Positions 5,151 to 61,996 of a stretch of 64,000 nt of DNA are shown here, piece after piece. Source of the stretch: a bacterium (GTDB taxonomy: Bacteria > Armatimonadota > JACIXR01); the NCBI GenBank assembly GCA_014360495.1, contig JACIXR010000007.1, positions 44,501 through 108,500 of the forward strand. The letters are read 5' to 3'. Numbering within the stretch: position 1 is the stretch's first letter; the number at the start of each line of letters is the position of its first letter. The translations under genes were made by a program, and so were the position numbers. The notes below the pieces were generated by a model. It saw only the letters and a program-made list of their open reading frames with translations. It did no database searches and was not told the DNA's origin.

Positions 5151-5218
5151 TTATTAAAAGCGTCAAATACAAATTGCGTTTTTAAGTCACATCGTTCATC
5201 ATATTTTTGGTGATTAAA

Positions 5219-7282: not shown

Positions 7283-7339
7283 CCTTTTTCCCTTGCTTAA
7301 TTTTTTAAATCTGTTTTACTATTATTGGAGGTGATTAAA

Positions 7340-24695: not shown

Positions 24696-25421
24696 CTACA
24701 TTCCATAATCCTCAGCATTTCTGCATAGAGGGTCTATGTAGATATTAGTATTACGATTTCCACTTGCGTCCATCTGCCCATCCCAATCGGGAACCTGCTC
24801 CCGCTTGAACGACTTCACATGCCCATCCACAAAGGCAATGTTAGCGGTATCGTTATGGCGAAAAGCAACCAAATGCCTCTGGTGGTCAGGCTCTTCCGGC
24901 AATGTTTGCCCACCCCAACAACAGCCATTCCTTTGAGAAATGGGATGCCATACCACATGGCATTCGCCAAACATCAATACTTTGGATGGTTGTGCGATTG
25001 AGGCAAGCGATACACCATGCGGGAACCAAAAATCCGGACCCAAGCATTTGTTCCAACCATAGCTCCAATCTTGCAATTCTAAAGGTGGCTGACCCTTGCT
25101 GGGGCATATCATAATCGCCTCGTTCTTAATGTAAGGGTAAATCCCTGCGTGCCGGTAGAGATATTGAACCGCCCAGCAACCAGGAGTTGGAGAACCACAA
25201 TAAGCGTCAGCTGTTAGGAAGAAATGCTCGTCCCAATCCTGAGCATACATCAACGCAGCGGTTGCCAGGTTCCTCATATTGCTCATACATTGGCTCTTCC
25301 TAGCCATCTCTCTCGCCCTTGAGAAAACCGGAAACAGAATGGCGGCGAGAATTGCTATGATAGCTATAACCACTAGTAATTCAATTAAGGTAAAACCTCT
25401 CTTTTTACTTTTCTTTATCAC
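24696..25421 (-). CDS. DUF1559 (H-X9-DG) protein with prepilin-type N-terminal cleavage/methylation domain
   Basis: 241 aa. [32 protein letters not shown]... and C-terminal [13 protein letters not shown] (H-X9-DG). Confidence 0.88.
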
Positions 25422-43054: not shown

Positions 43055-45462
43055 TCTTCATCACCCCTACTTGCCAAGGCGGGTGCTTTATCCCTCGCCA
43101 AGGCGATTTCTAATACCTCGTCCATATGCTCAACGAATTTGAAATCCAATTCCTCAAGCACCTTCGGGCTGACCTCGGCAAGGTCCTTTTGATTCTCCTT
43201 GGGCAAGATAACCGTCTTTATCCCCGCTCTATGAGCGGCAAGAACTTTCTCCTTCACACCTCCAATTGGCAAGACTTTCCCTCGGAGGGTGATTTCTCCC
43301 GTCATAGCGACATCCTTCCGAACGGGGATTCCGCTGAGGGCTGATGCAAGAGCACAGGCAATCGTTATTCCTGCGGATGGACCATCCTTGGGAATAGAAC
43401 CTTCGGGAACATGGATATGAATATCGGTCTTCTCCTGAAATCTCTCATCTATCCCCAGCTGTTTTGCCCTTGAGCGAATGTATGAAAGAGCAGCCCTTGC
43501 TGACTCCTTCATAACCTCACCTAACCTACCCGTTAGAATAAGCTCTCCCTTTCCCTTGAGGACGGCAACCTCAACTGAGGTAGTATCCCCTCCCACAGGA
43601 GTCCAAACCAAAGCCGTCGCCACTCCAACCTCGTCCTCCTTCTCAGCCACTCCATATCGGAAGCGAGGGGCACCAAGATATTCGGGTATTGCCTCCGCAT
43701 CTACAATCGTCTTTTCCTCCTTCCCCTCCGCCACCTTTACCGCCACCTTCCTGCAAATATTCGCAATCTCCCTCTCAAGATTCCTCACTCCCGCCTCTCT
43801 CGTATACTCCCTTATGATTCTCATAAGGGCATCATCGGTTATCTCCAACATATCCTCCTTCAAACCGTGCTCATTCCTCTGCTTGGGAAGAAGGAAATAT
43901 TTAGCGATGTTTAGCTTCTCCTCCTCAGTATAGCCGGGAAACTCTATCACTTCCATCCTATCCTGAAGGGCAGGTGGGACGGTATCCAACACATTTCCCG
44001 TGCAGATAAACATAACCTCCGAGAGGTCAAAGGGAACCTCAAGATAATGGTCGGAGAAGGCGTAATTTTGCTCGGGGTCGAGCGCCTCAAGGAGGGCTGA
44101 GGAAGGGTCGCCGCGAAAATCTATTCCTATTTTATCAATCTCGTCAAGCATAAAGACGGGATTTTTCGTCCCAGCTGTCCTTATCCCCTGGATTATCCTT
44201 CCCGGCAGGGCACCCACATAGGTCCTCCTATGCCCCCTTATCTCGGCTTCATCCCTCACTCCACCGAGCGATATCCTGACGAACTTCCGTCCCATTGCCC
44301 TTGCTATTGAACGCCCTATGGAGGTCTTTCCCACACCGGGCGGACCTATGAAGGCGAGAATGGGTCCTTTCGTTTTATCCCTCAACTTCCGCACGGCGAG
44401 GAACTCCAAAACCCTTTCCTTCACCTTCTTCAATCCATAATGGTCCTCGTCCAAAACCTTCCTCGCATATTCTATATCCAAGTTATCCTCCGTGCGTTTA
44501 TTCCAGGGAAGCTCAACAAGCCAATCCAACCATGTCCTAATGACCGCAGCCTCGGGAGCGATGCTCGGCATCTTGGACAATCTCTCCAACTCCTTCATCG
44601 CCTTCTCCTTCACTTCCTCCGGCATCCCCGCCGCCTCTATCCTCTTCTTATATTCTTCATACTCCGATACCCCCTCCTCCTTCATCCCCAATTCCTCCTG
44701 CAGAGCCTTGAGCCGCTCCCTCAAAATAAATTCCCTCTGCGATTCCCCTATCTCTTTCTCCACCTTGCTCTTTATCTTACCCTCTATCTCCTGCACTACC
44801 AGCTCCTTCCTCAGAATGGTTGCGAGCTTCTCTAAACGCTCCCTCACGGAAAGAGTGGCAAGAAGCGCTTGCTTATCCTCTAAGCTTATGGAATAAGGCG
44901 GTCCAAGATAATAGGCAATCAAATCCGCTACCCTTGATGGGTCTGTTATCGTCTTTATCTCGCCGACCAACTCGGGTGGAATCGTCTCAGCCACAGGTGA
45001 GATATTCCTGCTCATCCTCCAAAGCTGTTCAAAGAGGGAAATCACAAGCCTCCTGTTCGCCTCAAGCTCCTCCGGCGAATCCTCAACTATATCATTAAGC
45101 TCCTGAATCCTAACTAAAAAATAGGGGTCGGTTTGCAAGAACTCCTCTATCTTTACCCTCTTAACTCCACCAATAAGCGCCCTCACAGTATTGTTGGGAA
45201 GGGGCAACATCCTCACTATCTCACCCACAACCCCTATATCATAGAGGTCCTCTGGACCGGGGTCGTCCTCATCGGGGTCCTTTTGCGCCACCAAAACAAT
45301 GAGCTTGTCCTTTTGAACCGCTTCCTCAATTGCTTTATATGAGCGCGGACGCCCAATCTCAAGGGGAGCTAAAATGTTGGGAAATATCACCGTCCCCCTC
45401 CTCAGAGGGATGAGGGGAAGTTCAGAAGGAATTTTCCTTTCTTGCTCTTTTTCCTCTGGCAT
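43051..45462 (-). CDS. lon: ATP-dependent Lon protease
   Basis: 803 aa. Walker [10 protein letters not shown]; protease active-site region KDGPSAGIT. 4-nt overlap with valS. Confidence 0.95.
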
Positions 45463-45476
45463 ATTAGATTCACTCC

Positions 45477-46703
45477 TTACGATACCGCAGTTTCGCCTTC
45501 AAATTCAATAAGGGGAGGATTCAAACCCCTTACCACATCTTTATTGATGATACAGCGTCTCGCTCCCTTCATAGAGGGAAGCTTGAACATAACATCAAGC
45601 ATAATCTCCTCCAAAATGCCCCTCAACGCCCTCGCGCCCGTTCCTCTCCTTATCGCCTCCCTCGCAATCTCATCAATTGCCTCCTCCTCAACTATAAGCT
45701 CAACCCCTTCCATCTGAAAGAGAACCTGATATTGCTTCAAGAGGGCGTTTTTAGGCTCTGTGAGAATCCTCTTCAGCTCTTCAATTCCCAAGGGGTCAAG
45801 CACAGCGACGACTGGCAATCGCCCTATGAGCTCGGGAATGAGCCCAAACTTATGTAAATCCTCGGGGAGGACCTTATGCATAATATCCCCATGCTCCTCT
45901 TCCTCCTCAACCGCTCTAAAACCTATAGCGGAGCTCTTTGTCCTCTGCTCTATTATCTTGTCCAATCCCTCAAAGGTCCCACCGCAGATGAACAAAATAT
46001 TTGTGGTATCAAGAGGAATGAACTCCTGATAGGGGTGTTTTCTTCCGCCTTGAGGAGGGACATTCGCTATCGTTCCCTCCAATATCTTGAGAAGCGCCTG
46101 CTGAACTCCCTCACCGGATACATCCCTCGTTATAGAGGGATTCTCCGATTTCCTCGCTATCTTATCAATTTCATCTATATACACAATCCCCCTCTTTGCC
46201 GCTTCAAGGTCCCAGTCAGCAGCTTGAATAAGACGAAGAAGGATGTTCTCCACATCCTCGCCCACATAACCTGCCTCAGTTAAAGTAGTGGCATCGGCGA
46301 TGGCAAAGGGAACATCAAGGCGCCTCGCAAGTGTTTGGGCAAGGAGCGTCTTGCCTACCCCTGTGGGACCTATAAGCAAAATATTGCTCTTCTGAAGCTC
46401 GACATCGTCCCTATTAGAAGAGGATATCCTTTTATAGTGATTATAAACCGCGACCGACAAAATCTTCTTCGCTCTATCTTGTCCCACGACATACTGATTG
46501 AGGAAATCGTAAATTTCCTGGGGCTTGGGAAGCTTTCCGCTATAGCTAGTCCTTTGCGGTCTGAAGCCATGCTCCTTCAAGAGCTCGCTCGCTATCTCAA
46601 CGCAATCGGGGCAAATAGCTCCTTTCTCCCCTATGATTAAACGACCTACCTGGCTCTCCGTTCTTCCGCAGAATGAACATCTTCTTTCCTCAAGCCGGCT
46701 CAT
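45477..46703 (-). CDS. clpX: ATP-dependent Clp protease ATP-binding subunit ClpX
   Basis: 408 aa. N-terminal zinc-binding CSFCGR...CPDC; Walker A GPTGVGKT. Confidence 0.95.
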
Positions 46704-47311
46704 TTCGCCACCTGAAGCTCCTTCGTCTTGTCCCGAGGATAGATTATGTTATCAATTAGCCCGTATTCCTTCGCTTCAAGAGCTGACATATAATAGTCCC
46801 TCTCCGTATCCCTCTCTATCTTCTCAATCGGCTGACCGGTGTGATGAGCGAGAATCTCGTGGATTATCCTCTTTAGCCTCATTATCTCCTCAGCCTGTAT
46901 TTTTATATCCGTAGCTTGCCCGAAAATTTGCCCCCAGGGTTGATGGATGAGTATGCGGGAATAGGGAAGGGCAAATCTCTTGCCCTTAGCTCCTCCGGCA
47001 AGCAGGACAGCAGCTATGGAAGCAGCCTGTCCAATGCATATCGTTGAGACATCCGGCTTGATGAACTGCATAGTATCGTAAATCGCCAATCCGCTTGTTA
47101 CCTCCCCGCCAGGGGAATTGATATAGAGGTCTATATCCTTCTCCTTGTCCTCCCTTTCCAAATAGAGAAGCTGAGCAATGACGAGATTAGCTACCTCACT
47201 GTTAATCGGCGTCCCGATGAAGATAATCCTATCCTCTAAAAGGCGAGAGAAGATATCGTAAGCTCTCTCTCCGCGCGCGGACTGCTTTATTACAATGGGC
47301 ACAAGGCTCAT
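46700..47311 (-). CDS. clpP: ATP-dependent Clp protease proteolytic subunit ClpP
   Basis: 203 aa. Typical ClpP sequence ([10 protein letters not shown]..., [19 protein letters not shown]). Confidence 0.95.
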
Positions 47312-48606
47312 TTCTCTTCCTCCTTTTTAATTTTAACCGATTTCTTGAGAAATTCAAGAATCTTCCTCAAATAGATACCACCGACCACCTCATCCATCCT
47401 TCCCGTCTCCTCCAGAAGGCGCCGCATACTCTCCTGCGGCACCTGATTCGCCTCCGCAAGCTCCTCAACTCTCTTATTTATGTCCTCTTCGCTGACAGAA
47501 ATCCCTTCCCTCCTACCAATTTCCTGCAGGATGAGCCTCCTCACAAGTATATCCCTTGCATCTCTTTCCAGCTCCATCTGCAATCTCTCCAAAGTCATAT
47601 TATTCTCCGAGAGATAGGTATCCAAATCATATCCCCGCCTCTCCAAGCTCTCCATTAAGCGAGCGAACCTTTCACTCACCTCCTCCTGCAACATCGGCTC
47701 GGGAAATTCAACTTGAGAAAGCTCTACGAGGCGGGTAAAGATTTCCCTTTCCAGCTGCTCCTCTGCGAGCTTCCTCGCTTCTTCCTCCAATTCCTTCCTT
47801 ATGTTCTCCCTCAATTCATCCAAAGTATTGAACTCGCTCGCCTTGCGAGCGAACTCATCATCCAATTTGGGAAGAACCAGCTTGCTTATCCCCTCCACCC
47901 TCACCCTGAGCACGGCACTTTTTCCCGCCAGCTCGGGATTATTGAAATCGGGAGGATACTGCACTTCAATTTCCTTCTCCTCTCCCACCTTCATCCCCTC
48001 AAGATGGACATCAATGGGAGGAATGAGGTTTTCATCTCCAACTATTATTCTATCCTTCTTCTCCTCCCTGTAGGGTTGTCCATCAACATAAACTTGGATA
48101 GCAACATCCACCACATCTCCTCTTTTCACTTGCTTTCTTTTCAGAGGTTGCGTCTCCGCAAAGCGATGGCGAAGGACATCCAATTTATTCTCAATATCCT
48201 TTTCCTCTACCTTTATTGGCTTATATTCCACCTCAATGGTATCGTAGGGAGGGAGGTTTACGGTGGGTTGGGTATAAACTTTAGCGTTGATGAGGACATC
48301 TTCTCCCTCATCAAACTTCTCAATCTCTATCTCGGGATTGGTATAGGGATGGATATCCTTTTCCTCTATAACCTGCTTATAGACCTCTTCAGCCAATATC
48401 CGACCGGCTTCCTCCTTGAGGTAAGTCTCCCCGATGTATCGGCGGACCAAGGTCAGGGGGGCTTTGCCCCTTCTGAAGCCAGGGACCTGCACTCTTTTTC
48501 TAAAATATTCAAGCGCCTTACTGATTGCCTCCTCCGCTTTTTCCTTTTCAACCTTGATATTGAGAGAGATATAGCAGGGGGCTAACTTCTCAAGGGATAC
48601 ATCCAT
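47308..48606 (-). CDS. tig: Trigger factor
   Basis: 432 aa. Ribosome-binding motif region GFRRGKAP; central PPIase-like domain. 4-nt overlap with clpP. Confidence 0.9.
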
Positions 48607-48634: not shown

Positions 48635-48710
48635 TGGAGCGGGCGACGGGACTCGAACCCGCGACCTTCGGCTTGGAAGGCCGATGCTCTACCATGTGAG
48701 CTACGCCCGC
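48635..48710 (-). tRNA. tRNA-Gly (anticodon UCC), CCA encoded
   Basis: Reverse complement GCGGGCGTAGCTCACATGGTAGAGCATCGGCCTTCCAAGCCGAAGGTCGCGGGTTCGAGTCCCGTCGCCCGCTCCA. Folds as a cloverleaf by eye: 7-bp acceptor, anticodon loop CTTCCAA, T-loop GGTTCGAGTCC. Confidence 0.9.
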
Positions 48711-48712
48711 TC

Positions 48713-48800
48713 TGGTGGGCGAGGGGAGAGTTGAACTCCCACAGGTGTTGAACCCATCGGATCCTAAGTCCGACGCGTCTACCAGTTCCGCCACTCGCCC
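48713..48800 (-). tRNA. tRNA-Leu (anticodon UAG), type II with long variable arm, CCA encoded
   Basis: Reverse complement GGGCGAGTGGCGGAACTGGTAGACGCGTCGGACTTAGGATCCGATGGGTTCAACACCTGTGGGAGTTCAACTCTCCCCTCGCCCACCA. Anticodon loop CTTAGGA, long variable arm. Confidence 0.88.
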
Positions 48801-50967: not shown

Positions 50968-51174
50968 TTTCCTCTCCTTCCTTTCAATTATTAGAAATAT
51001 TTTAAATGAAAAATAAATAAAAATAAATAGTTTACTTGGTTTTGTTGCAAAATTGATATAGCCCCATAGGTACTGCTCTAATCGCCCCAAACTCGCTCAG
51101 CACATTTACAAATTTTCCGAACAATATTTATCAACAAAAACCTTTGACCTCTGTCCGAAATGCTTTAATAAAAG

Positions 51175-51203
51175 GTGTGCCCGCCCCCTGGGGGCGGGCA
51201 CAC
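51175..51203. promoter_or_regulatory. Perfect GC-rich palindrome (13-bp arms, 3-nt spacer): candidate operator or hairpin
   Basis: gtgtgcccgcccc-ctg-ggggcgggcacac. Lies in the divergent intergenic region between the TPR gene and mtaB. Confidence 0.5.
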
Positions 51204-51442
51204 TTGAAAGGAAAGGAGGTGAAAAAGATGAGGAAGAGGCTTCACGCTTCATTTTTATTAGACTATTAAGAGGGAAAAATGTTACACCCAAATAAAATGA
51301 AAGTTTTCGTTTCTTAATGTTTATTTGGGAATCTCTTTAACTCACCCCAGAATTTATTAAAGCAATTATAATCACCATAAGCGTATATTCAACCAACCTT
51401 CCTCTTTTCTCAATATTTACATCAATACCTAAGAATAAATTT

Positions 51443-51471: not shown

Positions 51472-51502
51472 TAATTCAAAAATTTAGGAGGTTGATTTGG
51501 AT

Positions 51503-52870
51503 ATGAGTAGTATGGTTTATGAAAATTGGCAGGAGATGCTCTTCGGCATCTCAAAAAAGCCGATAAAGTGTGGCTTAGGCTTGGAGATTGGTTCAGGGGA
51601 GGTTATCCCCGAGATTAAGCCGCATCCTCGCCCCGGAATGGAAGCCAGCCTTGATTCACTGCTTGAAGAATACAAACGCATTACAAATGATATAATGGAG
51701 AGGGCAATAAAGCTTGGATTTCCCTCCATAATGTTGGAAATAGAACATGTTGCCCAACTCACCCTTAACCCGGCTTGGGGTGAAGAGGTCGTAAAGATTT
51801 GTAAGGATATCCTCCATAAATTTCATCAAAGATACGGGATAAAATGCGCTCTACGAGCCACGATAGCTGATGTGAGGAGGAGTGAGCATAATTTGAGGAA
51901 GAGCAAGGAGACAGACCTATTATTTGAATCTTTTGAAAGATGTGCCCGAGCGGGAGCAGATGTCCTCTCTATTGAATCAATAGGGGGCAAAGAGGTCTTC
52001 AATTACGCTCTCACTCGTCAGGATTTGCCAGGCATTCTCTTCGCCATAGCTGTATTGGGAAGCAGGGATATGGAATTTCTTTGGGATAGAATCGTTGAGA
52101 TAGCGGAGCAATACGAATCCATCCCGGGTGGAGATACGGATTGTGCCCACGCTAACACCGCGATGATGCTTGCTGGCGGGATGGTAGGGGGAGACTTCCC
52201 GCATACCGTTGCCGCTCTAATTAGAGCAATGGCGGGAGCCCGCTCTTTGGTTGCGGTGGAAAGGGGAGCTAAAGGACCTCTTAAGGATTGTGGATACGAA
52301 AACCCCATAATAAAGGCAATCACTGGTGTCCCAATATCCATGGAAGGGAAAACAGCTGCTTGCGCTCATATGGATTTAATGGGAAATCTCGCCGCCTCGG
52401 TATGCGACTTGTGGTCTAATGAGGCTGTTGAGTATAGAGATATGTTTGGTGGCACAACGATTGCCGTCTTCACGGAGATACTTGGCTACGATGCTTCTCT
52501 GTTCAACACAGCCCTCGCTACAGGCTACGCTGAGTGCTTAAGAGATTTGCTGGTTGCTTCTGATAAATATCGTGACCCTCAAGCATTGGTCATCTCACCA
52601 GATGTAGCCTGGGAAATCGGAAAAGTAGTAGCCGATACCCAAGGATATTACTTAAGGGCGAAAAGGGCTGTTCTTAAGGCTGGCGAAATAATTAAAAGAG
52701 AGTTAAAGGAAGGGAATTTACAAATTCCCCAACGGGAATTAGACGCCTTAGATTCCGCTCTCCTGCAACTTTCTTCCCTTCCTGACGATGAGGAGAAATT
52801 CACTCACGATATGAAGGGCAAATACGAAACACTTGTTGAGGATTTCCTTCCATCTTCCTATGACATCTAA
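51503..52870 (+). CDS. mtaB: Methanol:corrinoid methyltransferase, MtaB family
   Basis: From the Met at 51503 the protein reads SMVYENWQEMLFGISKKPIKCGLGLEIGSGEVIPEIKPHPRPG...EYKRITNDIMERAIKLGFPSIMLEIEHVAQLTLNPAWGEEV...YGIKCALRATIADVR. This closely parallels recalled Methanosarcina MtaB (SMAYANADEMTFGVSKYPVKAGLDLEIGAG...EYERITTDVMERAV...GIKCALRHTIGDIR). Conserved Cys positions (DTDCAHAN, AACAHMD) are present. The ORF track start is TTG 51497. Confidence 0.85.
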   Translation: MSSMVYENWQEMLFGISKKPIKCGLGLEIGSGEVIPEIKPHPRPGMEASLDSLLEEYKRITNDIMERAIKLGFPSIMLEIEHVAQLTLNPAWGEEVVKICKDILHKFHQRYGIKCALRATIADVRRSEHNLRKSKETDLLFESFERCARAGADVLSIESIGGKEVFNYALTRQDLPGILFAIAVLGSRDMEFLWDRIVEIAEQYESIPGGDTDCAHANTAMMLAGGMVGGDFPHTVAALIRAMAGARSLVAVERGAKGPLKDCGYENPIIKAITGVPISMEGKTAACAHMDLMGNLAASVCDLWSNEAVEYRDMFGGTTIAVFTEILGYDASLFNTALATGYAECLRDLLVASDKYRDPQALVISPDVAWEIGKVVADTQGYYLRAKRAVLKAGEIIKRELKEGNLQIPQRELDALDSALLQLSSLPDDEEKFTHDMKGKYETLVEDFLPSSYDI

Positions 52871-52885
52871 AAGGAGGTAATGCAA

Positions 52886-54631
52886 ATGTCTATCTTTAAA
52901 AATGTTTTAGCTTCGCTTTTGAGGGAAAGAAAAAGCTTTTACCCCTGCCTCTCCGCTAATCCAACGCCTACATTTGAGCAAATGAAGGCAGTTAATAGCT
53001 TCTTCCCCGCTGCTCATAAAGACCCCGAGAAGATGTCCCATTTAGCGATTGCAGGTCATAAATTAATCGGATTTGACGCAGTAAGAATCCCCTTCTGCCA
53101 AACTATTGAAGCGGAGGCGCTTGGTTGTGAGGTTTTCCTTGGTAGCGACAACATACCAACTGTCATATCCCATCCTTATCGCATAGGGGATAAGTTTATC
53201 CTTCCCGACGATATCTTAAAAAGGGGAAGAATACCCGTCCTCTTGGAAGCAATTAAAATTATCAAAGACGAAGTTAAGGAAGTGCCCCTCATAGTTGGAC
53301 TTGTTGGCCCTTTCACAATAACCGGCTATCTGTTTGGGATGACCCAACTTCTTATGCAGATGGCTATTTCACCCGAGGAGATTCTTCCTTACATGGAGAT
53401 GGCCCTACAGGTGAATGAAATTCTTGTTAAAGCTGTTGAGGAGGCGGGTGCTGACATAATCTGTGTTGAGGATATGACCGCCTCCACTGATATGATTAGT
53501 CCAGATATGTATAAAGATTTTATTCTTCCCTATCACGAAAAACTTTTTTCCTTTATATCTCTCCCCTCAATTCTCCACATTTGCGGGAATGTTACCCCTA
53601 TAATCGGATATATGGCTGAAACTGGTGCTGACGCCTTAAGCATTGATGATAAAACAGACTTGAGGAGGGCAAGAGATATTACTAAAATGAAAGTTACTTT
53701 GCTGGGTAATCTTAATCCTTCCACTACCCTTCTTCATGGGGACGAGAAAAAAGTTAGGGAAGCAACAAGAAAAGCCATCCGGGATGGAATCGACATAGTT
53801 GCTCCTGGCTGCGCCCTCCCCCTTGGTACCCCCTCTTCTAACCTGCGTGCGATGGTTGAGGAAACGCATAAGGCAAGCCTACCAAAGACCTTCACAGGAA
53901 TATCTGCTCCCATCTATCCCTTCAGACTCTACGGAATTGAAGAGAAAAAGGGAAAAGAAATAACCCCCGAAGTGGAAACTCCCTTTCCCCGTATAAGGGA
54001 AGCAGTGCTTAAAGGTAATAAAGAAGAATGCAGGAAGGCGACCGAGGAAGCCCTTTCAATAGCCAATCCCGAAGAAGTAATAGAGAAGGGATTGGTTAAG
54101 GCAATGGATGAGGTAGGGAAATTATGGGAAGAAGGCTACTTCTTCCTTCCCCAAGTTATGCTCTCCGCTGATGCTCTAATGGAGGGGTTAGAACTATGCG
54201 AGAGGAAAATGGGGGCAAGGTTGAAGAAAAAGGGGAAAGTGGTGCTTTTTGTGGCTAAAGGCGATATTCATACCATTGGCAAGAACATAGTGAAAGCACT
54301 CCTTTCTGCTTCTGGGTTTGAAGTAATAGATTTAGGAGTGGATATTGATGATGAGGAGGTTATAAGGGCAGTGAAGAAGCATAAACCGGTTCTTTTGGGG
54401 GGTTCGGCACTTATGACCACGACTATGTCTGCATTTCCCCGCATCGCCAAAAGACTTCTGGAGGAGGGTATAGAAATCCCCTTTGCCTGTGGAGGAGGAG
54501 CAGTTAATGAGGAATTTTGTGATACATTCCCCCTGGGCATATATGGAGGTGAAGCGAGAAGGGCTCCGCTGATTGCTGAGGCAGCGTTAGAGGGTAAGAA
54601 TTGGAGAGAAATCAAAGAAATGTTTCGTTAA
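52886..54631 (+). CDS. Fused MtaA-like methylcobamide methyltransferase (URO-D fold) and MtaC-like corrinoid (B12-binding) protein
   Basis: N-terminal about 340 aa match recalled archaeal MtaA (RGRIPVLLEAIKIIKDEV; LHICGNVTPI; VAPGCALPLGTP). C-terminus has a helical cap plus Rossmann B12-binding domain with the DxHxxG motif (KGDIHTIGKN) and GGSALMTTT. AGGAGG RBS 8 nt upstream of ATG 52886; 15-nt gap after mtaB. Confidence 0.85.
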   Translation: MSIFKNVLASLLRERKSFYPCLSANPTPTFEQMKAVNSFFPAAHKDPEKMSHLAIAGHKLIGFDAVRIPFCQTIEAEALGCEVFLGSDNIPTVISHPYRIGDKFILPDDILKRGRIPVLLEAIKIIKDEVKEVPLIVGLVGPFTITGYLFGMTQLLMQMAISPEEILPYMEMALQVNEILVKAVEEAGADIICVEDMTASTDMISPDMYKDFILPYHEKLFSFISLPSILHICGNVTPIIGYMAETGADALSIDDKTDLRRARDITKMKVTLLGNLNPSTTLLHGDEKKVREATRKAIRDGIDIVAPGCALPLGTPSSNLRAMVEETHKASLPKTFTGISAPIYPFRLYGIEEKKGKEITPEVETPFPRIREAVLKGNKEECRKATEEALSIANPEEVIEKGLVKAMDEVGKLWEEGYFFLPQVMLSADALMEGLELCERKMGARLKKKGKVVLFVAKGDIHTIGKNIVKALLSASGFEVIDLGVDIDDEEVIRAVKKHKPVLLGGSALMTTTMSAFPRIAKRLLEEGIEIPFACGGGAVNEEFCDTFPLGIYGGEARRAPLIAEAALEGKNWREIKEMFR

Positions 54632-54659: not shown

Positions 54660-57600
54660 TTAGAAGGAGCGGGTGAGGTCGAGCCTGAGACCGACATTGT
54701 TCTTCCCCTTGAAGTTATCGGTGTAGTAGCCGGACAAGCTGAGGGAGTTCTCAGGATTTATGTTGCGAGAATAGGAGAACCTGTAGGTTATTCCACCAAC
54801 CTTGTCTCCCGCAATTGAGGAGTAGTCAAGGCTAACAGAGGTATCAAGCGTCTCATAAGCGGAAAGCTTGCCGGAGATGGCAAAAAGGCTCTTGTAAACT
54901 CCCTTATTTTCCCTCTCTATGAAGTTGTATTCGTGGCATCCCTTGAAGGAAAGCTTATCGTTGAGAGGGAATGCAATCTCCCAATTGAGCTTTCTGGTAA
55001 GCTTCTTATTTGGGTCGGGAACATTATCAAGAAGCGCAATCTTCAAGTTGAACTTCGGGGAAGGAGTGTATTGAAGTGCATACTGCTTGTTCATCTTTCC
55101 ATTCATATAATTGCTATCCAGAATGTATTCACCAGAAAGGACTGGAGAGCCCTGATATTTCAAGACGACCCTCTTGGTATTGAGGACATTTCCCTTTTGG
55201 TCCTCGGGATTTCTCAACAAAGAAAGGGTGAAGGTCTTCCCATCAAAGGGATAGACGATATCCAATCCCCTCGTCGTCTTGTCGTTCTGCCCGCTCCTAT
55301 CCTTGAAGGTGAAGCTGAGCTTATAGGGGGCACCTTGAGGTTGATAATTAGCCTGAAGCAGGCGGTAAGAGTTGGATTTATCTCCGAGGGACTGGATTCC
55401 ATATGCGAGATTGCCAGTTAAACCTGGGATGAAAGTCCTCGTTAAGGAGAATTCCTGCTTCTTTCCGTCCTTCCCGTTTTGCGTCATCTTGATGTTCTCC
55501 GCTTTAAACTGGGATTGGGAATCAAGTTTTTGAACAAGAGCTATCCTCCTGAAGCTGTGCTCCGCGCTTTCCTTAAAGGAAAAGCTCAAGGTTCCCGCTT
55601 TTCCTTTAAGCAAAGGAGAGTTGATATCAATGCTTCCTTCGTCAATTCTCTTGCCATCCTCCAGATTTTTACGAGAAAAGTTAAGGGCGTAGGAGAAGTT
55701 TTTCTTCAAAGACTGGTTAAAGTTTATAACGGTCAAATCGGACTGAAATTCCTTATCCCCTTCCTTCCTGTATCCCTGCATCCTCTGGAGTTTGAGGTGA
55801 GCATTGGCGAAGGCTTTCTCAACTATCAGGTTATAGATGTCGTTGGAACGATTAACATCGCTAACCTGCTTGGTGGAATCCAAAGTGAGATAGGCTTTCA
55901 GATTATTCTTGCCGGTGAATGCCAAGTTATGGACGCTATGGGTTGTGGATTTGCCCCACATCCCGTCGCTCCTCGTGATATCCAAGCTCTCTATCTTGGT
56001 GATGGAGGTGGAGAAGGCAAGATTCTTTGAGAGAGGCAATGCAAGGAAGAAGTCCTTCTTCTCCGCGGACCTCTCCTGGGCAAGGCGTCCCTTGTCAGCC
56101 TCTGCTAAATCCGCAAATCTCGTGAACGATGGGTCTATGGTTTGAGTTGCGAAGCGGAAAATAGGCTGGTCCTTCACTTTCAGCTCTATGCTCTTCCCGT
56201 CAATTGAACCTTGAGAGTCCCCTATCTTGCGAGAGGATAGAGAAAGGGTCAAGCCCGGCAGGAGGTTATCAAGCTTGAAATTACCGCTCAAGAGGGATTT
56301 CTTTATTCCCCATTCATTGGCAAATCTCTTCTTTTCCGGGTCGGTCAAATCTCCGAAACGCCTGAACCCCTCGCTGAACTCACTCTTATAGAACGAGATT
56401 TGCCACTTATCGCTCTTCAATTGTAGGCTGTTGCCCTTCCAACCTTCTTTCCCATCCAATAAGCTAGCGATGCTAAAGGAAGTCTGCAATTTAGGCGAGA
56501 AGTTGAACGAACCCTCAATGGTCTTCCTCGCCAACCCCTTTTCCTTTGCGAGCTGACCAGCGTCGGGCTCAGTTAAATTGCCAAAGCGAGCGAAATCCCG
56601 TCCAACTTCCTGCTTGCTGATTGAAAGGGAGAAATTCTTCCCCTTCAAGTCCAATTTCCCCCTCTCAATTCCATCCTTCTCATCTTTTATCCTCGTCTGG
56701 GAAAGGTTGAGGGTAATATTGGGGAGAAGATTCTTGGAAAGTTCCAGTGAATTCCTGCTTATCCCAATCTCCTTCGCCCATATTTTCGCTTCCGGCTCGT
56801 TCAAATCCTTCCCCCTCACGAAATCGGAGGTTATGCTTTGCTGGGTTAGACGGAGGAACTCGTTGTTATTGCCCTTTAGCTCTATCTGCCTCAATTTTCC
56901 CTCCCCTTTACCGTCGGTGGCGGATTTGTAAACAGTGGAAAGGGAAAGCGAATCGGAGAGCTTTATCTGCCCAGAGATTATCTGCTTGGTGATTCCCTTC
57001 TCCCTTGCCACTCCTTGGTTGCCCTTCGTTTGGGGGTCAACGGTTTGGCGAGTGAAGGAAAGGGAAAAAGCGGAGCTTTGGTAGCCAACTCCAAACTTCT
57101 TCGTGCCCGCCTCCTGCTTGAGGAAGGCAACATCCTTGCCGTTTAGATTATCGGGAATTCCCTGAGCGAGGAAATCCTTGTCTATCTCCTGATAGAAGAG
57201 GGTCAGCTTCCCCTTCCCCAAGGAGTAATCCAACCAGTTGGCGAAAGCCTTGCCTTTCTGGGAGGGAGCAGGGGCAGCGTTATCCCTTGTCATACCAGCA
57301 AGATAGTTATTCGTTGGTGATGTTCTGCTGAAGAAGAGGAGTCCCCTCCAAGTCGCATTGGAGCTCAACTTTGAGGTCAAGTCACTGCCGACAATCCAAG
57401 TCTCCATCTTATCCTGACCCGCTACAGCGGGGCGGAAGAAAGTAAATAGGCTGAGGGTAGATGAACCGCCGTTGAACGCAAGCTGGAGAGGCAGTCCGCT
57501 TGGAGATTGATTCTGCTTATTCGGGTCATAGTGATAAGAGACGATGAGGGTTCCCGATTTTATGTCCCCAGGGAGGAGAATCGTTCCATTAGCGTAATCA

Positions 57601-57854
57601 ATGATATAATCTACATCCCGCTTGAGGAAGCGCCCATTTGCGATTACCTTCTCGCTTCCCTCCACTATCCCCCTATGGGAGAGATAGAATACGCCACCCT
57701 TTACCACCTTCAGGGTGTCTGTGTAGAAAAGGGCTCCCTGTACGGCTGGCGCCTCATTCTGAAACCTCAAGGCTCCATTGGGCGCCGGCAATTCAAGGGA
57801 AAAAGCAAGGGAAGCTATCAAGCTAATTAAACTCAAAAATAGGAAACGCTTCAT
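54660..57854 (-). CDS. Giant outer-membrane-like protein with internal ~45-aa degenerate repeats and C-terminal aromatic residue
   Basis: Signal peptide MKRFLFLSLISLIASLAFS, taking the start at the internal Met 57854; the ORF track start is 57884. At least five repeats of type [D/E]F.RFG.L.[ED]P.... (DFARFGNLTEPDAG..., GFRRFGDLTDPEKK..., SFTRFADLAEADKG...). Ends ...GLRLDLTRSF, as in beta-barrel OMPs. Confidence 0.5.
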   Translation of the reverse strand: MKRFLFLSLISLIASLAFSLELPAPNGALRFQNEAPAVQGALFYTDTLKVVKGGVFYLSHRGIVEGSEKVIANGRFLKRDVDYIIDYANGTILLPGDIKSGTLIVSYHYDPNKQNQSPSGLPLQLAFNGGSSTLSLFTFFRPAVAGQDKMETWIVGSDLTSKLSSNATWRGLLFFSRTSPTNNYLAGMTRDNAAPAPSQKGKAFANWLDYSLGKGKLTLFYQEIDKDFLAQGIPDNLNGKDVAFLKQEAGTKKFGVGYQSSAFSLSFTRQTVDPQTKGNQGVAREKGITKQIISGQIKLSDSLSLSTVYKSATDGKGEGKLRQIELKGNNNEFLRLTQQSITSDFVRGKDLNEPEAKIWAKEIGISRNSLELSKNLLPNITLNLSQTRIKDEKDGIERGKLDLKGKNFSLSISKQEVGRDFARFGNLTEPDAGQLAKEKGLARKTIEGSFNFSPKLQTSFSIASLLDGKEGWKGNSLQLKSDKWQISFYKSEFSEGFRRFGDLTDPEKKRFANEWGIKKSLLSGNFKLDNLLPGLTLSLSSRKIGDSQGSIDGKSIELKVKDQPIFRFATQTIDPSFTRFADLAEADKGRLAQERSAEKKDFFLALPLSKNLAFSTSITKIESLDITRSDGMWGKSTTHSVHNLAFTGKNNLKAYLTLDSTKQVSDVNRSNDIYNLIVEKAFANAHLKLQRMQGYRKEGDKEFQSDLTVINFNQSLKKNFSYALNFSRKNLEDGKRIDEGSIDINSPLLKGKAGTLSFSFKESAEHSFRRIALVQKLDSQSQFKAENIKMTQNGKDGKKQEFSLTRTFIPGLTGNLAYGIQSLGDKSNSYRLLQANYQPQGAPYKLSFTFKDRSGQNDKTTRGLDIVYPFDGKTFTLSLLRNPEDQKGNVLNTKRVVLKYQGSPVLSGEYILDSNYMNGKMNKQYALQYTPSPKFNLKIALLDNVPDPNKKLTRKLNWEIAFPLNDKLSFKGCHEYNFIERENKGVYKSLFAISGKLSAYETLDTSVSLDYSSIAGDKVGGITYRFSYSRNINPENSLSLSGYYTDNFKGKNNVGLRLDLTRSF

Positions 57855-57902
57855 AGTTTCTCTCACCTCCTTGGGGACCACCATCGGGGTTCAACTCCCA
57901 AA

Positions 57903-58949
57903 TTAGAACTCAATCCTCGCTACCCCGATGACAATGCTTTTGTCCAAACGCTCACCTATCTTGGAGGGTAGAGAAGGTTTCTGGAAGGAGCTCGTTGCTT
58001 CCTTGAGAAGCTCGGAAACGGAGGTTTGGGGCTTAACCGCTACCTTTATCCCTTCAGCTGGAGAGGTTTCCTTAGCGGGTTGGGGTTGCTCTGCGACCTT
58101 TACCTCTTTCTGATTTGTCTCCACCTGTGCGGGTTTTTCGCTCGGCTGAGTTGAAGAAGTCTGGCTAACGGTTGGCTGGGAAACTTCCTCTTGTGGAACC
58201 TGAGGAACTACAACGGTTGCCTCTTGGGGAGCTTGGGAAATAGCTGGTGGAATCACAGCCTTCTCCCGCCTTGTGGTTTCCTTTACCTTCTCTTTAGGAA
58301 CCACCCTAGCCAACCTCTTAGCAGTAGCAGCAGGCTTGACCTCCCTTTTTACGGGTTCACGAGAGGACAGGATTCTTTGAGCGACTGCAGGAGTGGTGGG
58401 CGAGGTCGTGGGGTGATGGATGGGGAGAGCGAAGAAAACGAGGGAAGCGGCAGCAGCAAGAGTGGTGAAGCCAATCGCAATGCGACGCAAGAAGATGGGT
58501 CTCCTCTCTATTGCGGCGTATATCCTCTGCCTGAGATAGCGAGGAGCTTCCACCTCGGGAAGGGAATGGAGAAGCTCTTGCAGCTTCTTTTCTCCTTCCA
58601 GCTCTTCCTTGCAATCCCCGCACATAGCGATATGCTCCTCAACCTTCTCTTTCTCGGCTTCGGAGATATCGCCATCCGCATAGAGGGTCAGCAAGGGGCG
58701 AACGACCTCGCATTCCTGCTCCTTCGCAACCCTTGCCATAATCCTCTCTCTGAGGGAGATGGGAGGCTGAACCTCCTCAACCTGGCGGGCGAAGCTCTTT
58801 ACACTCTCCAGCTCCCTCAACTCGCTCCTGCACCTCTCACACTCTTGGAGGTGCCACTCAACACTTTCCCTTTCCGCTTTGGAGAGTTCTCCGTCCAAGT
58901 AGGCGGAAAGGATGGGAGAGATTTGCTCGCAGCTGATTCTTCTTGCCAT
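57903..58949 (-). CDS. Anti-sigma factor with two tandem zf-HC2 domains, one TM helix and Pro/Thr/Gln-rich periplasmic region
   Basis: 348 aa. CEQISPILSAYLDGELS...HLQECERCRSEL, then a second copy EVVRPLLTLYADGDIS...HIAMCGDCKEEL; TM helix IAIGFTTLAAAASLVFFALPI; low-complexity P/T/Q/V-rich tail. Confidence 0.7.
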   Translation of the reverse strand: MARRISCEQISPILSAYLDGELSKAERESVEWHLQECERCRSELRELESVKSFARQVEEVQPPISLRERIMARVAKEQECEVVRPLLTLYADGDISEAEKEKVEEHIAMCGDCKEELEGEKKLQELLHSLPEVEAPRYLRQRIYAAIERRPIFLRRIAIGFTTLAAAASLVFFALPIHHPTTSPTTPAVAQRILSSREPVKREVKPAATAKRLARVVPKEKVKETTRREKAVIPPAISQAPQEATVVVPQVPQEEVSQPTVSQTSSTQPSEKPAQVETNQKEVKVAEQPQPAKETSPAEGIKVAVKPQTSVSELLKEATSSFQKPSLPSKIGERLDKSIVIGVARIEF

Positions 58950-59044
58950 TTTGCATAACCTCCTTTCATTTACATATGACTATAAATTCGTTATTTCGTT
59001 ACAGAATCACCCCAATAAGGAGGCTCAATAGATCATCTTTTAAA

Positions 59045-59083: not shown

Positions 59084-59932
59084 ATGGAATTCCAGACCCT
59101 TCTTCGAAAGTTGGACGAGTTTTGGATTAATCAAGGTTGCCTCATCCTCCAACCTTACGATGTAGAGGTTGGAGCGGGAACTATGCATCCCGCCACTTTC
59201 TTCGGCGCCCTTGGCGATTATCCTTGGCGCGTCGCCTATGTCCAGCCCTCCCGCAGACCACAAGACGGTCGCTACGCCCAGAATCCCAATCGCTTGCAAA
59301 GATATTATCAGTATCAGGTCATCGTTAAGCCCGCACCCCACGATATCCAAAACATCTACCTTGATAGCCTTGAATTCTTGGGCATCCACCTCAAAAAACA
59401 CGAAGTTCGCTTCATAGAAGACGATTGGGAATCCCCTACACTCGGCGCCTCGGGCGTCGGATGGGAGGTCTGGCTTGACGGATTGGAAATCACGCAGTTC
59501 ACCTACTTCCAACAAATGGGCGGAGTGGAGCTATCTACCATCTCCGTTGAGATAACCTACGGACCGGAAAGGCTCGCTATGTATCTTCAAAAAAGCGATT
59601 CCATTTTGGATATTGAATGGGGAAGAGGAATTAAATATGGAGATATCCACACCGCTATGGAAGTAGAACACTGCAAATACAACTTTGAATTGGCTGATAT
59701 CTCTTCCCTCCTCTCCCTCTTCAACCATTATGAGAAGGAAGCCCACTCGCTTTTAGACAAGAAATTGATATTCCCAAGCTATGACTTGGCTCTTAAATGC
59801 TCCCATATCTTCAATATCCTTGATGCGAGAGGAGCGCTAAGCGTTACAGAAAGAGCTTCCTTTATAGATAGAGTGCGAGCGATTGCAAATAGGTGCGCCC
59901 AACTTTACATCCAACAGGAGGCATCGGTATAA
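59084..59932 (+). CDS. glyQ: Glycine--tRNA ligase alpha subunit
   Basis: 282 aa. [28 protein letters not shown]...[23 protein letters not shown] is the highly conserved GlyQ core. Confidence 0.95.
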
Positions 59933-61996
59933 ATGGATTTCCTCTGGGAAATAGGATGTGAGGAACTTCCGCCTCACTTCATTCCTCAGGCGATTAAACA
60001 ATTAAAGGAAGGAGCGGAAAAGCTTCTCAATCAAAAAGACGTCTCTTTCTCAAAGATTTCCGCCTATGGAACTCCAAGACGCCTCGTCCTTTACATTGAA
60101 GATATCGCCCCAATACAAAAAGAGAAAATCTTGGAGATTAAAGGTCCTCCTTATCATATAGCATTTGATGATAAGGGAAATCCAACCCAATCTGCATTTG
60201 GTTTCGCGCGCTCCCAGGGGGTGAATGTTGACGAACTGATTGTTAAGGAGGATAAACAAGGGAAATATGTTTACGCCCTGAAAAAAGAGGCGGGACGCCC
60301 CACAGGCGAAATCTTGAAGGAAGTCTTACCGGAGCTCTTCTCCTCTGTCTTCTTGCCCAAATCTATGCGCTGGGATGCCTCAGGGCTGAGATTCATCCGT
60401 CCCGTCCGCTGGCTTCTCGCCCTCTTAGGAAATGACATCCTTGAATTGAGATTGGGCGATTTGCTCTCCTCTAATAAAACTTATTTGGAAAGATATCTCA
60501 AAGAAGAATTCACCCCTAAGAGCATTGAGGAATATTTTGAAAAATTGCGAGAGGTAGGAATAGTATTAGAACCTATTAAAAGGAGGGAAATCATCATTAA
60601 TGGAGCGAATGAGCTCGCTGAAAGCGTGGGAGGAGAGATAGCTTCCAACGATGAGTTGTTGGAGAAAGTTACCTTTTTGAACGAGAAACCCCGCCCATTC
60701 CTGGGCAGGATAGATGAACGCTTCCTCCATCTGCCCAAGGAAGTTATCATAACCGCTATGCAAAGCTATCTCAACCTTTTCCCCATTGTGGATGAGGAGG
60801 GAAAGCTTCTACCCTATTTCGTTGGAGTGAGGGACGGTGATGAGGAGGGCTTGGAGAATGTAATAGAGGGATATGAGGAGGTGTTAAAAGCTCGCTTAGC
60901 GGATGCTCATTTCTTCTTCGAAGAGGATTTAAAAGTTTCCCTTGAGGAGAGAAGCAAACAGCTGAACGGGATAATCTTCCTGGGTGGATTGGGCACGATA
61001 GCGGATAAAGTGGAGAGGATGATATCCGTTATATCCTCCCTTTCCATAGATGGTGATATTAAGGAGAAAGCTATAAGGGTTGCGAGATTATGTAGAGCGG
61101 ACCTAACCACGAATATGGTAAAGGAATTCCCCGACCTCCAGGGAATTATTGGCAGATGTTATGCCCTTCTCCAAGGGGAAGAGGAGGAGGTAGCGAGCGC
61201 TATTTACGAATCCTATCAATACAACCTCTCTCCCGATGGTATATGGACACCGCTCGGCAGGTTAATCAGTTTGGTGGATAAAATGGATACGCTCGTGGGC
61301 GCATTCAATCTCGGCTTACAGCCAACCGGGTCTTCAGACCCATTCGCATTGAGGAGGGCTTGCCAAACTGTAATAGATATCCTGCGGGATGAAAAGAAAA
61401 TCCAGTTTAAAGATTTATTAGAAAAAGTTATACAAACTTATACAGAAAAGGGAATAGAACCAAAGGGAATGGACGAGCTGCGGGAATTCATCAAAAATAG
61501 GATTGGGCTCTCCTTGAGGGATATGGGGATAAGATACGACATCGTAAACGCCGTCTTGGCGGGAGAATTAGAGGATATAAGAGATGTCTTCCAGAGAGCT
61601 CTTGCCCTTGAGGAGCTTAGAGAGAATGAGGAGTTCATACCCGCTGTTATGGCGTCGGTCAGGTTAATTAATATACTTCGTCAGGGAGAGCGGAGGGGGG
61701 AGAAAATAAGGGAAGAAGTGAAGGAGGAACTGCTTCTCCTCCCCGAGGAAAAAGAGCTTTATGAGCAGGGGAGAAAAGTCAGGGAAAAAGTGGAGGAACT
61801 CAGGCAAAATGAGGATTACAAATCCATTTTCCTTGAGCTTTCTTCTCTAAAGGATTTGATAAATAGATTCTTTGATAAGGTTTTGGTTATGACGGAAGAT
61901 GATGAGTTGAGGGCGAATAGGCTTGCCCTCGTCAACTCAATCTGGAAGATGTTTTTCCTCTTCGGCGATTTATCTCAAATCGTTATTGAGGGATGA
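59933..61996 (+). CDS. glyS: Glycine--tRNA ligase beta subunit
   Basis: 687 aa. N-terminal LWEIGCEELPPHFIPQAIKQL and C-terminal anticodon-binding/DALR-like region. Starts immediately after the glyQ stop. Confidence 0.93.
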   Translation: MDFLWEIGCEELPPHFIPQAIKQLKEGAEKLLNQKDVSFSKISAYGTPRRLVLYIEDIAPIQKEKILEIKGPPYHIAFDDKGNPTQSAFGFARSQGVNVDELIVKEDKQGKYVYALKKEAGRPTGEILKEVLPELFSSVFLPKSMRWDASGLRFIRPVRWLLALLGNDILELRLGDLLSSNKTYLERYLKEEFTPKSIEEYFEKLREVGIVLEPIKRREIIINGANELAESVGGEIASNDELLEKVTFLNEKPRPFLGRIDERFLHLPKEVIITAMQSYLNLFPIVDEEGKLLPYFVGVRDGDEEGLENVIEGYEEVLKARLADAHFFFEEDLKVSLEERSKQLNGIIFLGGLGTIADKVERMISVISSLSIDGDIKEKAIRVARLCRADLTTNMVKEFPDLQGIIGRCYALLQGEEEEVASAIYESYQYNLSPDGIWTPLGRLISLVDKMDTLVGAFNLGLQPTGSSDPFALRRACQTVIDILRDEKKIQFKDLLEKVIQTYTEKGIEPKGMDELREFIKNRIGLSLRDMGIRYDIVNAVLAGELEDIRDVFQRALALEELRENEEFIPAVMASVRLINILRQGERRGEKIREEVKEELLLLPEEKELYEQGRKVREKVEELRQNEDYKSIFLELSSLKDLINRFFDKVLVMTEDDELRANRLALVNSIWKMFFLFGDLSQIVIEG

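Follow-up and report, generated by a model that had tools for sequence, protein, structure and literature searches.

ECF (extracytoplasmic function) sigma factors and their anti-sigma factors are among the main signalling systems of bacteria, and an anti-sigma gene typically, though not by definition, lies beside its ECF sigma gene and usually after it. The 64,000-nucleotide stretch of an Armatimonadota genome analysed here (the window; contig JACIXR010000007.1 of assembly GCA_014360495.1, positions 44,501 to 108,500) holds the gene of an anti-sigma factor with a duplicated sigma-binding domain, which has no sigma gene for a neighbour and is followed by the gene of a giant secreted beta-barrel protein. 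What does such a factor control, and why does it stand next to a barrel? The answer that we favour is that the two genes encode an ECF-controlled trans-envelope module whose sigma factor is encoded elsewhere and which regulates its own operon by feedback; we believe this full model slightly more than we doubt it. We are more confident in its core, namely that the anti-sigma factor is genuine, is under ECF control and shares a transcript with an outer-membrane barrel. The features of the locus are listed in Table 1.

The product of the open reading frame (ORF) is identical to MBC7330138.1, a "zf-HC2 domain-containing protein" on a 179,764-bp contig of a metagenome-assembled genome (MAG) at NCBI. 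The first-pass annotation, made from the letters of the sequence, had proposed two tandem zf-HC2 modules, and a Pfam scan bore this out: zf-HC2 (PF13490) matched two separate stretches at E 5.6e-25, with 87.5 bits where the cut-off is 22.2, and several NCBIfam anti-sigma models likewise gave two matches each within the 348 residues. Both zinc-ligand sets are complete in the sequence (C7..H33-x3-C37-x2-C40 in module 1 and C80..H106-x3-C110-x2-C113 in module 2), and both are invariant or nearly so in 30 family members at 23–56% identity. A gap-free alignment of one module with the other covers 68 residues and shows 38% identity (E 6e-17); what has been duplicated is thus a whole anti-sigma domain, and the repetition is no chance recurrence of a motif.

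Structural comparison pointed in the same direction. A profile of 11 orthologues searched against the PDB matched the anti-sigma domain of RsiW (5wuq, the SigW/RsiW crystal structure) over residues 6–80 at E 2.8e-9. In an AlphaFold2 (AF2) model, which is confident over residues 1–130, the predicted local distance difference test score (pLDDT) exceeds 90 over most of residues 11–120 and runs at about 77–95 per ten-residue block across residues 1–130. The predicted helices span residues 7–18, 24–36, 38–59 and from 64 onward in module 1, and up to 92, then 97–109, 111–129 and 137–148 in module 2, helix 4 of the first domain being continuous with helix 1 of the second (helix 64–92). The top 17 Foldseek matches of the 1–130 model in the PDB were all anti-sigma domains, nearly all of them in complex with their own ECF sigma factor, and the structures matched include RsiW, RslA, RskA, ChrR and MucA; the values are weak (best E 0.15, template modelling (TM) score 0.71 on the target), as is to be expected of a domain of 70 residues. 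By sequence, motif and predicted fold the protein is a member of the class I, or zinc-associated anti-sigma (ZAS), family, and its two domains would be expected to bind sigma.

An Arg-rich stretch precedes the single membrane helix, which places the N-terminus inside and the C-terminus outside, and the AAAAS.. core of that helix is invariant in the family. The periplasmic linker varies in sequence and length among orthologues and has a pLDDT below 50 in the AF2 model; unlike the linker, the C-terminal tail is conserved among orthologues to the same degree as the ZAS modules. Its final Phe is nearly invariant in the 30 distant family members, where the protein ends in the pattern ...RVDVIsxKF. 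An N-terminal four-helix HxxxCxxC domain is likewise found in RsiW/SigW of Bacillus subtilis, RslA, ChrR and RsrA, and the RsiW/SigW class, with RsiW the best match by both sequence and structure, also shares the single membrane helix and the extracytoplasmic part. The protein of the window differs from that class in having two complete domains in tandem on one continuous helix, no sigma gene beside it, an extracytoplasmic part made of a disordered linker and a Phe-ended tail of about 48 residues, and a conserved barrel partner.

The zinc ligands themselves suggest another reading, in which the protein senses thiol/redox state or zinc in the cytoplasm, in the manner of RsrA/RslA: the sigma factor would be freed when either of the two Cys-His-Cys-Cys sites is oxidised, the periplasmic part would sense nothing, and the barrel would be a mere neighbour within the regulon. 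Both modules indeed keep the C..HxxxCxxC set of redox-sensitive ZAS proteins, RslA, a membrane-bound redox-sensitive member, is among the best structural matches, and the RsrA model TIGR03988, which covers residues 80–149 in module 2, passes its cut-off of 62.5 bits with 77.4. That score, however, adds up two stretches, and RsrA itself, an actinobacterial protein encoded beside sigR, is small and soluble. Because the score is a sum and the protein here is membrane-anchored, 348 residues long and without a sigma neighbour, we do not file it as an RsrA. Moreover, RsiW, which is freed by proteolysis, has the same zinc-ligand set, and a redox switch leaves unexplained both the conserved periplasmic tail and the link to the barrel, which persists down to 24% barrel identity (see below). 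We regard this reading as unlikely, although it deserves some weight; it is compatible with the feedback model, the two not being mutually exclusive.

The arrangement of the operon was largely as first described. The glyQ/glyS genes lie divergently upstream of the anti-sigma gene (59084–61996), and the distance to the downstream gene had been given as either 18 or 48 nt: taken from the longest ORF, the barrel gene starts 18 nt after the anti-sigma stop codon, and taken from the Met at 57854, it starts after 48 nt. The latter is almost certainly the real start, given the strong Shine-Dalgarno sequence AAGGAGGTG, the NCBI call of 1064 residues and the fact that the residues PKEVR are that Shine-Dalgarno sequence read in frame. 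For the same reason we rejected a 1074-residue version of the barrel protein, its added residues being the Shine-Dalgarno sequence translated in frame. In many assemblies the gene callers add 10–12 codons ("M..PKEVR..") to the barrel gene in this manner (57855–57884 in the window), and the N-terminal protein conservation that then appears is spurious, because it is AAGGAGGTG read in frame. The minus strand of the spacer between the two genes contains no terminator-like site. As had been suggested, the anti-sigma and barrel genes are very probably co-transcribed, judging by this short spacer and its lack of a terminator.

The downstream product had been called a 1064-residue repeat-containing outer-membrane protein, and it does combine a signal peptide, repeats of 76–80 residues and a barrel-like model. 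Each repeat consists of four strands and a short helical insert, DFxRFGxLTExDxxxLAKExG, and the protein ends in ...RLDLTRSF. The AF2 model, built from 11 sequences, has a mean pLDDT of 73.7 and arranges residues 205–1062 as 49 consecutive antiparallel strands. Its best Foldseek matches are outer-membrane barrels (TonB-dependent receptors, LptD, SprA and FimD), at TM-scores of 0.1–0.2; for SprA the match has E 3.7e-5 and a TM-score of 0.14, and for LptD the TM-scores are 0.13–0.21. The signal peptide, the modelled beta meander and the C-terminal aromatic residue place the protein in the outer-membrane barrel fold class, in no described family. Pfam, NCBIfam and PADLOC gave no family match for it; in particular, Pfam found no SprA_N (PF14349), LptD/OstA or Usher domain, NCBIfam no LptD, and PADLOC no defence system on either the barrel or the anti-sigma protein.

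The nearest approach to a known family lies at the N-terminus, where residues ~38–115 resemble a domain of an 1848-residue SprA_N-containing protein (hhalign probability 95.8%) and are modelled as strands at a pLDDT of 50–70. A word-indexed search with the barrel profile added to the 13 matches obtained with single sequences one weak match, a SprA_N-containing protein (P0034). The likeness to SprA and SprA_N-containing proteins is limited to the N-terminal ~100 residues of the barrel protein and the fold class; SprA itself, a translocon of type 9 secretion, has about 2400 residues, SprA_N repeats and 36 strands, as against some 49 modelled strands and internal repeats of 76–80 residues here. 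Among other large barrels, FimD has 24 strands, LptD 26 and the SlpA of Deinococcus 30. The largest barrel solved is that of SprA, with 36 strands (10.64898/2026.03.07.710327), which the present one would surpass if it forms a single pore.

The orphan state of the anti-sigma gene was another claim of the first-pass annotation, and it holds well beyond this locus. A Pfam scan of the window ORFs of at least 140 residues, which include every plausible ECF-sized ORF, found no sigma gene. When RpoE, SigW and SigR served as queries in a phmmer and hidden Markov model (HMM) scan of 316 kb, namely the window together with 19 related loci, no ORF resembling a sigma gene came up at E ≤ 10. In control searches these queries detected one another at 1e-22 to 1e-27, and the sigma HMM detected the true sigma genes of two further loci (L020 and L021) at 1e-42 to 1e-47. 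The usual placement of an anti-sigma gene beside an ECF sigma gene was thus seen neither in the window nor in any of the 19 loci, and since a sigma gene is absent near every related locus, the orphan state is a conserved property of the subfamily. A misassembly hiding a sigma gene is ruled out, the sigma-less layout recurring in independent NCBI, JGI, ENA and Logan assemblies. Armatimonadetes are reported to have many ECF sigma factors and genes that are unusually dispersed and non-operonic (PMC4959169); for this reason an unlinked sigma factor is unsurprising in this phylum, and a gene pair that is conserved is all the more telling.

Such conservation was found. The word-indexed search recovered 11 full-length anti-sigma homologues at 50–88% identity, and on each contig with a full-length homologue the next gene, in the same orientation, encodes a barrel homologue of 1063–1090 residues. 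Overall, the barrel homologue follows in the same orientation in 17 of the 17 loci with enough downstream sequence, which represent about ten distinct sequences. The pairing is kept from 89% down to 24% barrel identity, the genes being co-oriented and separated by 12–124 nt according to their called coordinates. The flanking genes, on the other hand, differ among loci and make up four contexts: glyQS (the window, L001, L002 and L005), a GH38 mannosidase (L003), an aminotransferase and a GATase. In L007, where the barrel homologue (P0033) has only 24% identity, the preceding gene encodes a 376-residue protein of the same layout: two ZAS domains, a single membrane helix, a linker of low complexity and a tail that reads ...FRVDIITKQF. 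When the context of four distant family members was inspected, three (L012, L016 and L014) had a barrel homologue with hmmsearch E-values of 1e-100 to 4e-18; in the fourth (L013) the downstream gene ends after 95 residues of available sequence, and it was left out of the barrel scoring. We argue for a functional pair because the pairing is kept down to 24% barrel identity and in four flanking contexts. In three of the loci (L003, L005 and L006), two FAD_oxidored genes come after the barrel gene, along with one gene for a DUF6785 membrane protein and one for a small protein of the zinc-ribbon/TPR kind.

The upstream region offers a candidate for the control of this operon. In the aligned upstream regions of the related loci, little is conserved beyond the ribosome-binding site except the motif TGT(A/T)AC-N15-(G/T)NGTC, which lies 18–86 nt before the homologous start codon in every related locus, variants included; L014, the most divergent locus, and L015 carry the variant CACAAC-N15-GTGTC. 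The exact motif occurs once per related locus, at the anti-sigma gene, except for a second match in L008. In the window, TGTWAC-N15-KNGTC has two matches against 0.08 expected, and none of 100 shuffled sequences reached two. Its form is like that of mapped ECF promoters (cf. PMC8315932, PMC6180224), in that the −35 element contains AAC, the spacing is fixed and the −10 element is of the GTC type. One such promoter is the ECF16 consensus (T/C)GTAAC-N17-CGAA, the −35 element TGTAAC of which was mapped by 5′-RACE (rapid amplification of cDNA ends; PMC8315932). A consensus scan of the intergenic region found no sigma-70-type promoter for the anti-sigma gene; the one present in the glyQ/anti-sigma spacer points towards glyQ. 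Judging by this motif, the operon is most likely read by an ECF sigma factor, and such a promoter fits the feedback loop of an anti-sigma factor whose sigma is encoded elsewhere.

The motif is found only upstream of the first gene of the pair, which bears on the possibility that the two genes are not coupled at all and are independent neighbours that chance, or common descent within a narrow lineage, has kept together. Most of the full-length homologues do come from one lineage (50–88% identity), in which the synteny with glyQS is also kept. Against this, the pair persists where all flanks are different (L003, L007 and L014) and at 24% barrel identity, and its spacers are short and without a terminator, with the motif before the first gene alone. 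We consider the absence of any coupling very improbable.

How unusual is the duplicated domain itself? A profile search of 1.84 billion representative sequences gave 23,696 matches at E ≤ 1e-3 and 713 clusters at E ≤ 1e-10, and among the best 150 matches, 122 had two HxxxCxxC-type motifs, 22 had three and 3 had four. The duplicated module, which most of these 150 share, is widespread, and the first-pass description of the architecture as atypical needs amending on this point. The members of the distant clusters are named Armatimonadota by NCBI, and database entries label such proteins "zf-HC2 domain-containing protein", "anti-sigma factor RsiW" or "hypothetical protein". A large subfamily of 350–390 residues ends, as the protein of the window does, in an amphipathic strand and [KR]F. 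Scans of other collections were less productive: a genome-contig scan with the anti-sigma protein found no relative, one with the barrel alignment found four MAGs, and a metagenome-contig scan with the subfamily alignment found three loci. In two other subfamilies, the gene directly follows an ECF sigma gene, namely that of P0089, with two ZAS modules, and that of P0039, with three near-identical modules, the latter being followed in turn by a MucB/RseB-like gene. Duplication by itself is not unique, since such multi-ZAS subfamilies are common and some stand beside ECF sigma genes, and this same neighbourhood argues that multi-domain ZAS proteins are genuine anti-sigma factors.

These sister subfamilies in sigma operons also speak to a purely structural role, in which the protein would be an inner-membrane-anchored plug, tether or assembly factor of the barrel, comparable to LptE for LptD or to the plug of SprA, and would use its zf-HC2 domains for some other contact. 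Known very large barrels need plugs or partners, the best Foldseek matches include LptD and SprA, and in LptD/LptE and SprA/plug the partner is encoded alongside the barrel, as here, where that partner is an anti-sigma factor. The layout of a membrane anchor, a Pro-rich linker and a conserved C-terminal tail is TonB-like, and no sigma gene is linked. Yet the likeness in sequence and fold is specific to sigma-binding anti-sigma domains, and the operon carries an ECF-type promoter, as expected of an anti-sigma factor in a feedback loop. With the sister subfamilies added, these points make a purely structural role distinctly unlikely in our view.

Several further members of the family deserve mention. 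In some proteins the ZAS modules number three or four (L021, 5001–5954; L020, 5001–6116; P0036, P0079 and P0080). The three modules of L021 are near-identical, which points to a recent triplication, and the gene has an ECF sigma gene on one side and a MucB/RseB-like gene on the other. Multi-domain anti-sigma factors seem to have arisen repeatedly. The 660-residue protein P0182 has six matched stretches and no HxxxCxxC motif. Another orphan tandem-ZAS protein, of 505 residues and ending in ...SGIRW, is encoded in L022 (5001–6518) without a sigma neighbour, among DUF6785, SepF, YggT and P5CR genes; a motif like that of the window, CGTAAC-N15-TTGTC, is found there at 4854–4879, about 120 nt upstream of the start codon at 5001.

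The earlier proposal was of a cell-surface signalling or envelope-stress pair, but the locus belongs to neither of the families that these terms bring to mind. No FecR, STN, Plug or TonB_dep_Rec domain was found on either protein at E ≤ 1 in Pfam or NCBIfam, RseA_N gave a sub-threshold E of 0.18, and NF041468 scored 21 bits against a cut-off of 165; because the defining domains are absent or below threshold, the system is neither of the Fec type nor a member of the RseA family. With FecA/FecR/FecI it has in common an anti-sigma gene next to an outer-membrane barrel gene, here with a spacer of 48 nt, and the likeness of the barrel protein itself is confined to the generic barrel fold. It differs in its duplicated ZAS-type anti-sigma domain, in a barrel about twice the size of a 22-strand receptor, in a sigma gene that lies outside the locus, and in the setting of the pair among housekeeping rather than uptake genes. 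As in the RseA/RseB/DegS/sigma-E pathway, the fate of the anti-sigma factor could hinge on the state of an outer-membrane protein. C-terminal ...x-F motifs matter in that pathway; here the Phe-ended peptide is the anti-sigma factor's own, rpoE and rseB were not found in the window, and there is no rseB or degS nearby. By analogy, the system would work most like cell-surface signalling or the RseA/sigma-E response, while being a member of neither.

The sigma-E pathway also has small RNAs (MicA, RybB and MicL), and here too an ECF-type motif stands before a candidate small RNA. This motif (TGTAACATTTTTCCCTCTTAATAGTC, 51261–51286) is the sole other TGTWAC-N15-KNGTC match in the window, and the putative RNA of about 90 nt that follows it is kept in L008 (7646–7772, plus strand), where the terminator stem has changed in a compensatory manner and no ORF follows. 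Its folding z-scores are −4.7 and −8.6, and it exposes a single-stranded C/U-rich stretch, CACCUCCUUUCCUUU, which is anti-Shine-Dalgarno-like. Rfam has no family for it, its only matches in the window being two tRNAs. The predicted pairing with the ribosome-binding sites of the barrel and anti-sigma genes ranks 7th and 9th among 39 genes, a non-specific signal, since it reflects generic anti-Shine-Dalgarno complementarity. Very tentatively, the RNA may belong to the same regulon as an ECF-dependent small RNA. Beyond this second motif, the window has a TPR protein gene, which starts near 50965, and a gene for a solute-binding protein.

Taken as a whole, the feedback model would operate as follows. 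The two cytoplasmic domains would hold an unlinked ECF sigma factor inactive, binding either two copies of it or two different sigma factors. The long proline-rich linker would cross the periplasm, and the strand-helix-strand tail, with its terminal Phe, would dock on the barrel, at the N-terminal periplasmic beta domain, in the lumen or at the seam. If the barrel were missing, misassembled or engaged, the tail would be freed and the anti-sigma factor degraded, and the released sigma would then transcribe the operon itself, restoring both barrel and anti-sigma factor in a negative feedback, and would perhaps also drive the small RNA.

Several points weigh against this model. The promoter is a motif match, and adjacency with a shared promoter would also fit two independent members of one regulon. 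The term orphan here means no sigma gene within 5–10 kb in the relatives, or within the 64-kb window, and no sigma partner was found in the sequence covered (the window and the related loci). The AF2 prediction for the tail, a helix at 311–320 and a hairpin at 338–347, is of low confidence. That of the barrel has a predicted TM-score (pTM) of only 0.49 and poorly modelled first 200 residues, and it fits one barrel of about 50 strands as well as several barrels. The 8–12 pairs available are too few for a covariation analysis. A bolder version of the model, a new class of trans-envelope device in which a multivalent anti-sigma factor, holding two sigma molecules or two different ECF sigma factors, is plugged through its Phe tail into a single-chain barrel of about 48–54 strands, more than in any solved barrel, and reports the integrity or occupancy of the pore to transcription, the same sigma driving a small RNA arm and the whole forming a core envelope feature of Armatimonadota-like diderm bacteria, strikes us as doubtful.

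Nevertheless, a conserved pair of this kind without a linked sigma gene suggests that the outer membrane may be tied to gene control in a manner not described before. Literature searches found nothing on tandem or duplicated zf-HC2 or anti-sigma domains, on anti-sigma factors of Armatimonadota, on orphan ZAS factors linked to barrels, or on this barrel family. Large ECF catalogues gather anti-sigma domains from the neighbourhoods of sigma genes (PMC7406223, PMC7826278); in one of these two papers, "orphan" anti-sigma domains figure only as a hypothesis, and tandem domains did not turn up in a term search of either. The locus provides a concrete, conserved and testable case of an orphan anti-sigma factor that has an ECF-type promoter on its own operon and is firmly tied, at the level of the genes, to a giant outer-membrane barrel of an uncharacterised kind. 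The envelope of this phylum has hardly been studied, and its genomes seldom preserve operons (PMC4959169). The duplicated sigma-binding domain raises the question of stoichiometry and of the control of two sigma factors, and the promoter motif is a handle for locating the missing sigma and its regulon in complete genomes.

Table 1. Features of the anti-sigma/barrel locus and of the second motif copy (positions in the window)
Feature	Positions	Strand	Basis or remark
Promoter-like motif TGTAAC-N15-TAGTC	58978..59003	-	ends 28 nt before the ATG of the anti-sigma gene
Shine-Dalgarno sequence AAAGGAGG of the anti-sigma gene	58959..58966	-	sequence
Anti-sigma factor gene, 348 aa + stop, ATG start	57903..58949	-	= NCBI MBC7330138.1
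ZAS / class I anti-sigma domain 1, aa 1-78 (C7, H33, C37, C40)	58716..58949	-	zf-HC2 over aa 7-41
ZAS / class I anti-sigma domain 2, aa 79-150 (C80, H106, C110, C113)	58500..58715	-	second zf-HC2 stretch
Single transmembrane helix, aa ~151-177	58419..58499	-	sequence; AF2 helix 153-173
Periplasmic linker, variable and disordered, aa 178-300	58050..58418	-	rich in Pro, Val, Ala, Glu, Thr, Gln, Lys
Conserved periplasmic C-terminal tail, aa 301-348	57906..58049	-	strand IKVAVK, helix, SIVIGVARIEF with final Phe
48-nt spacer with barrel gene Shine-Dalgarno AAGGAGGTG (57864-57872)	57855..57902	-	no terminator
Giant secreted beta-barrel protein gene, 1064 aa + stop	54660..57854	-	NCBI MBC7330137.1, locus tag H5T88_07245
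Signal peptide of the barrel protein, MKRFLFLSLISLIASLAFS/LE	57795..57854	-	sequence; no lipobox Cys
N-terminal small beta domain, aa ~38-115, presumably periplasmic	57510..57743	-	hhalign, AF2
Tandem repeats, ~76-80 aa each: four clear, a fifth degenerate (aa ~255-640)	55935..57092	-	sequence, AF2
Second ECF-type motif (51261-51286, TGTAACATTTTTCCCTCTTAATAGTC) and candidate ~90-nt RNA	51163..51286	-	GC-rich terminator at the end

The remaining genes of the window set the locus in its surroundings. A gene for an MtaB-like methanol:corrinoid methyltransferase (E 4e-196) adjoins one for a fused URO-D/MtaA-like and B12-binding protein (51497–54631, plus strand). In L008 this two-gene block (4515–7650) has the opposite orientation, with respect to the anti-sigma/barrel operon, from that in the window. 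Two adjoining tRNA genes (48638–48800, minus strand) lie just upstream of a trigger factor/ClpP/ClpX/Lon cluster (43051–48606). Very large glycoside-hydrolase-like genes are densely packed at 11997–34025 and 5207–8827 and comprise GH123_N, DUF5696, GH42-like, arabinofuranosidase, DUF2961 and rhamnogalacturonan lyase-like types, with a prepilin-type N_methyl/DUF1559 protein among them (24696–25421) and two large ORFs without any family (21208–23181 and 23185–24606). This set fits a sugar-scavenging, Armatimonadota-like organism.

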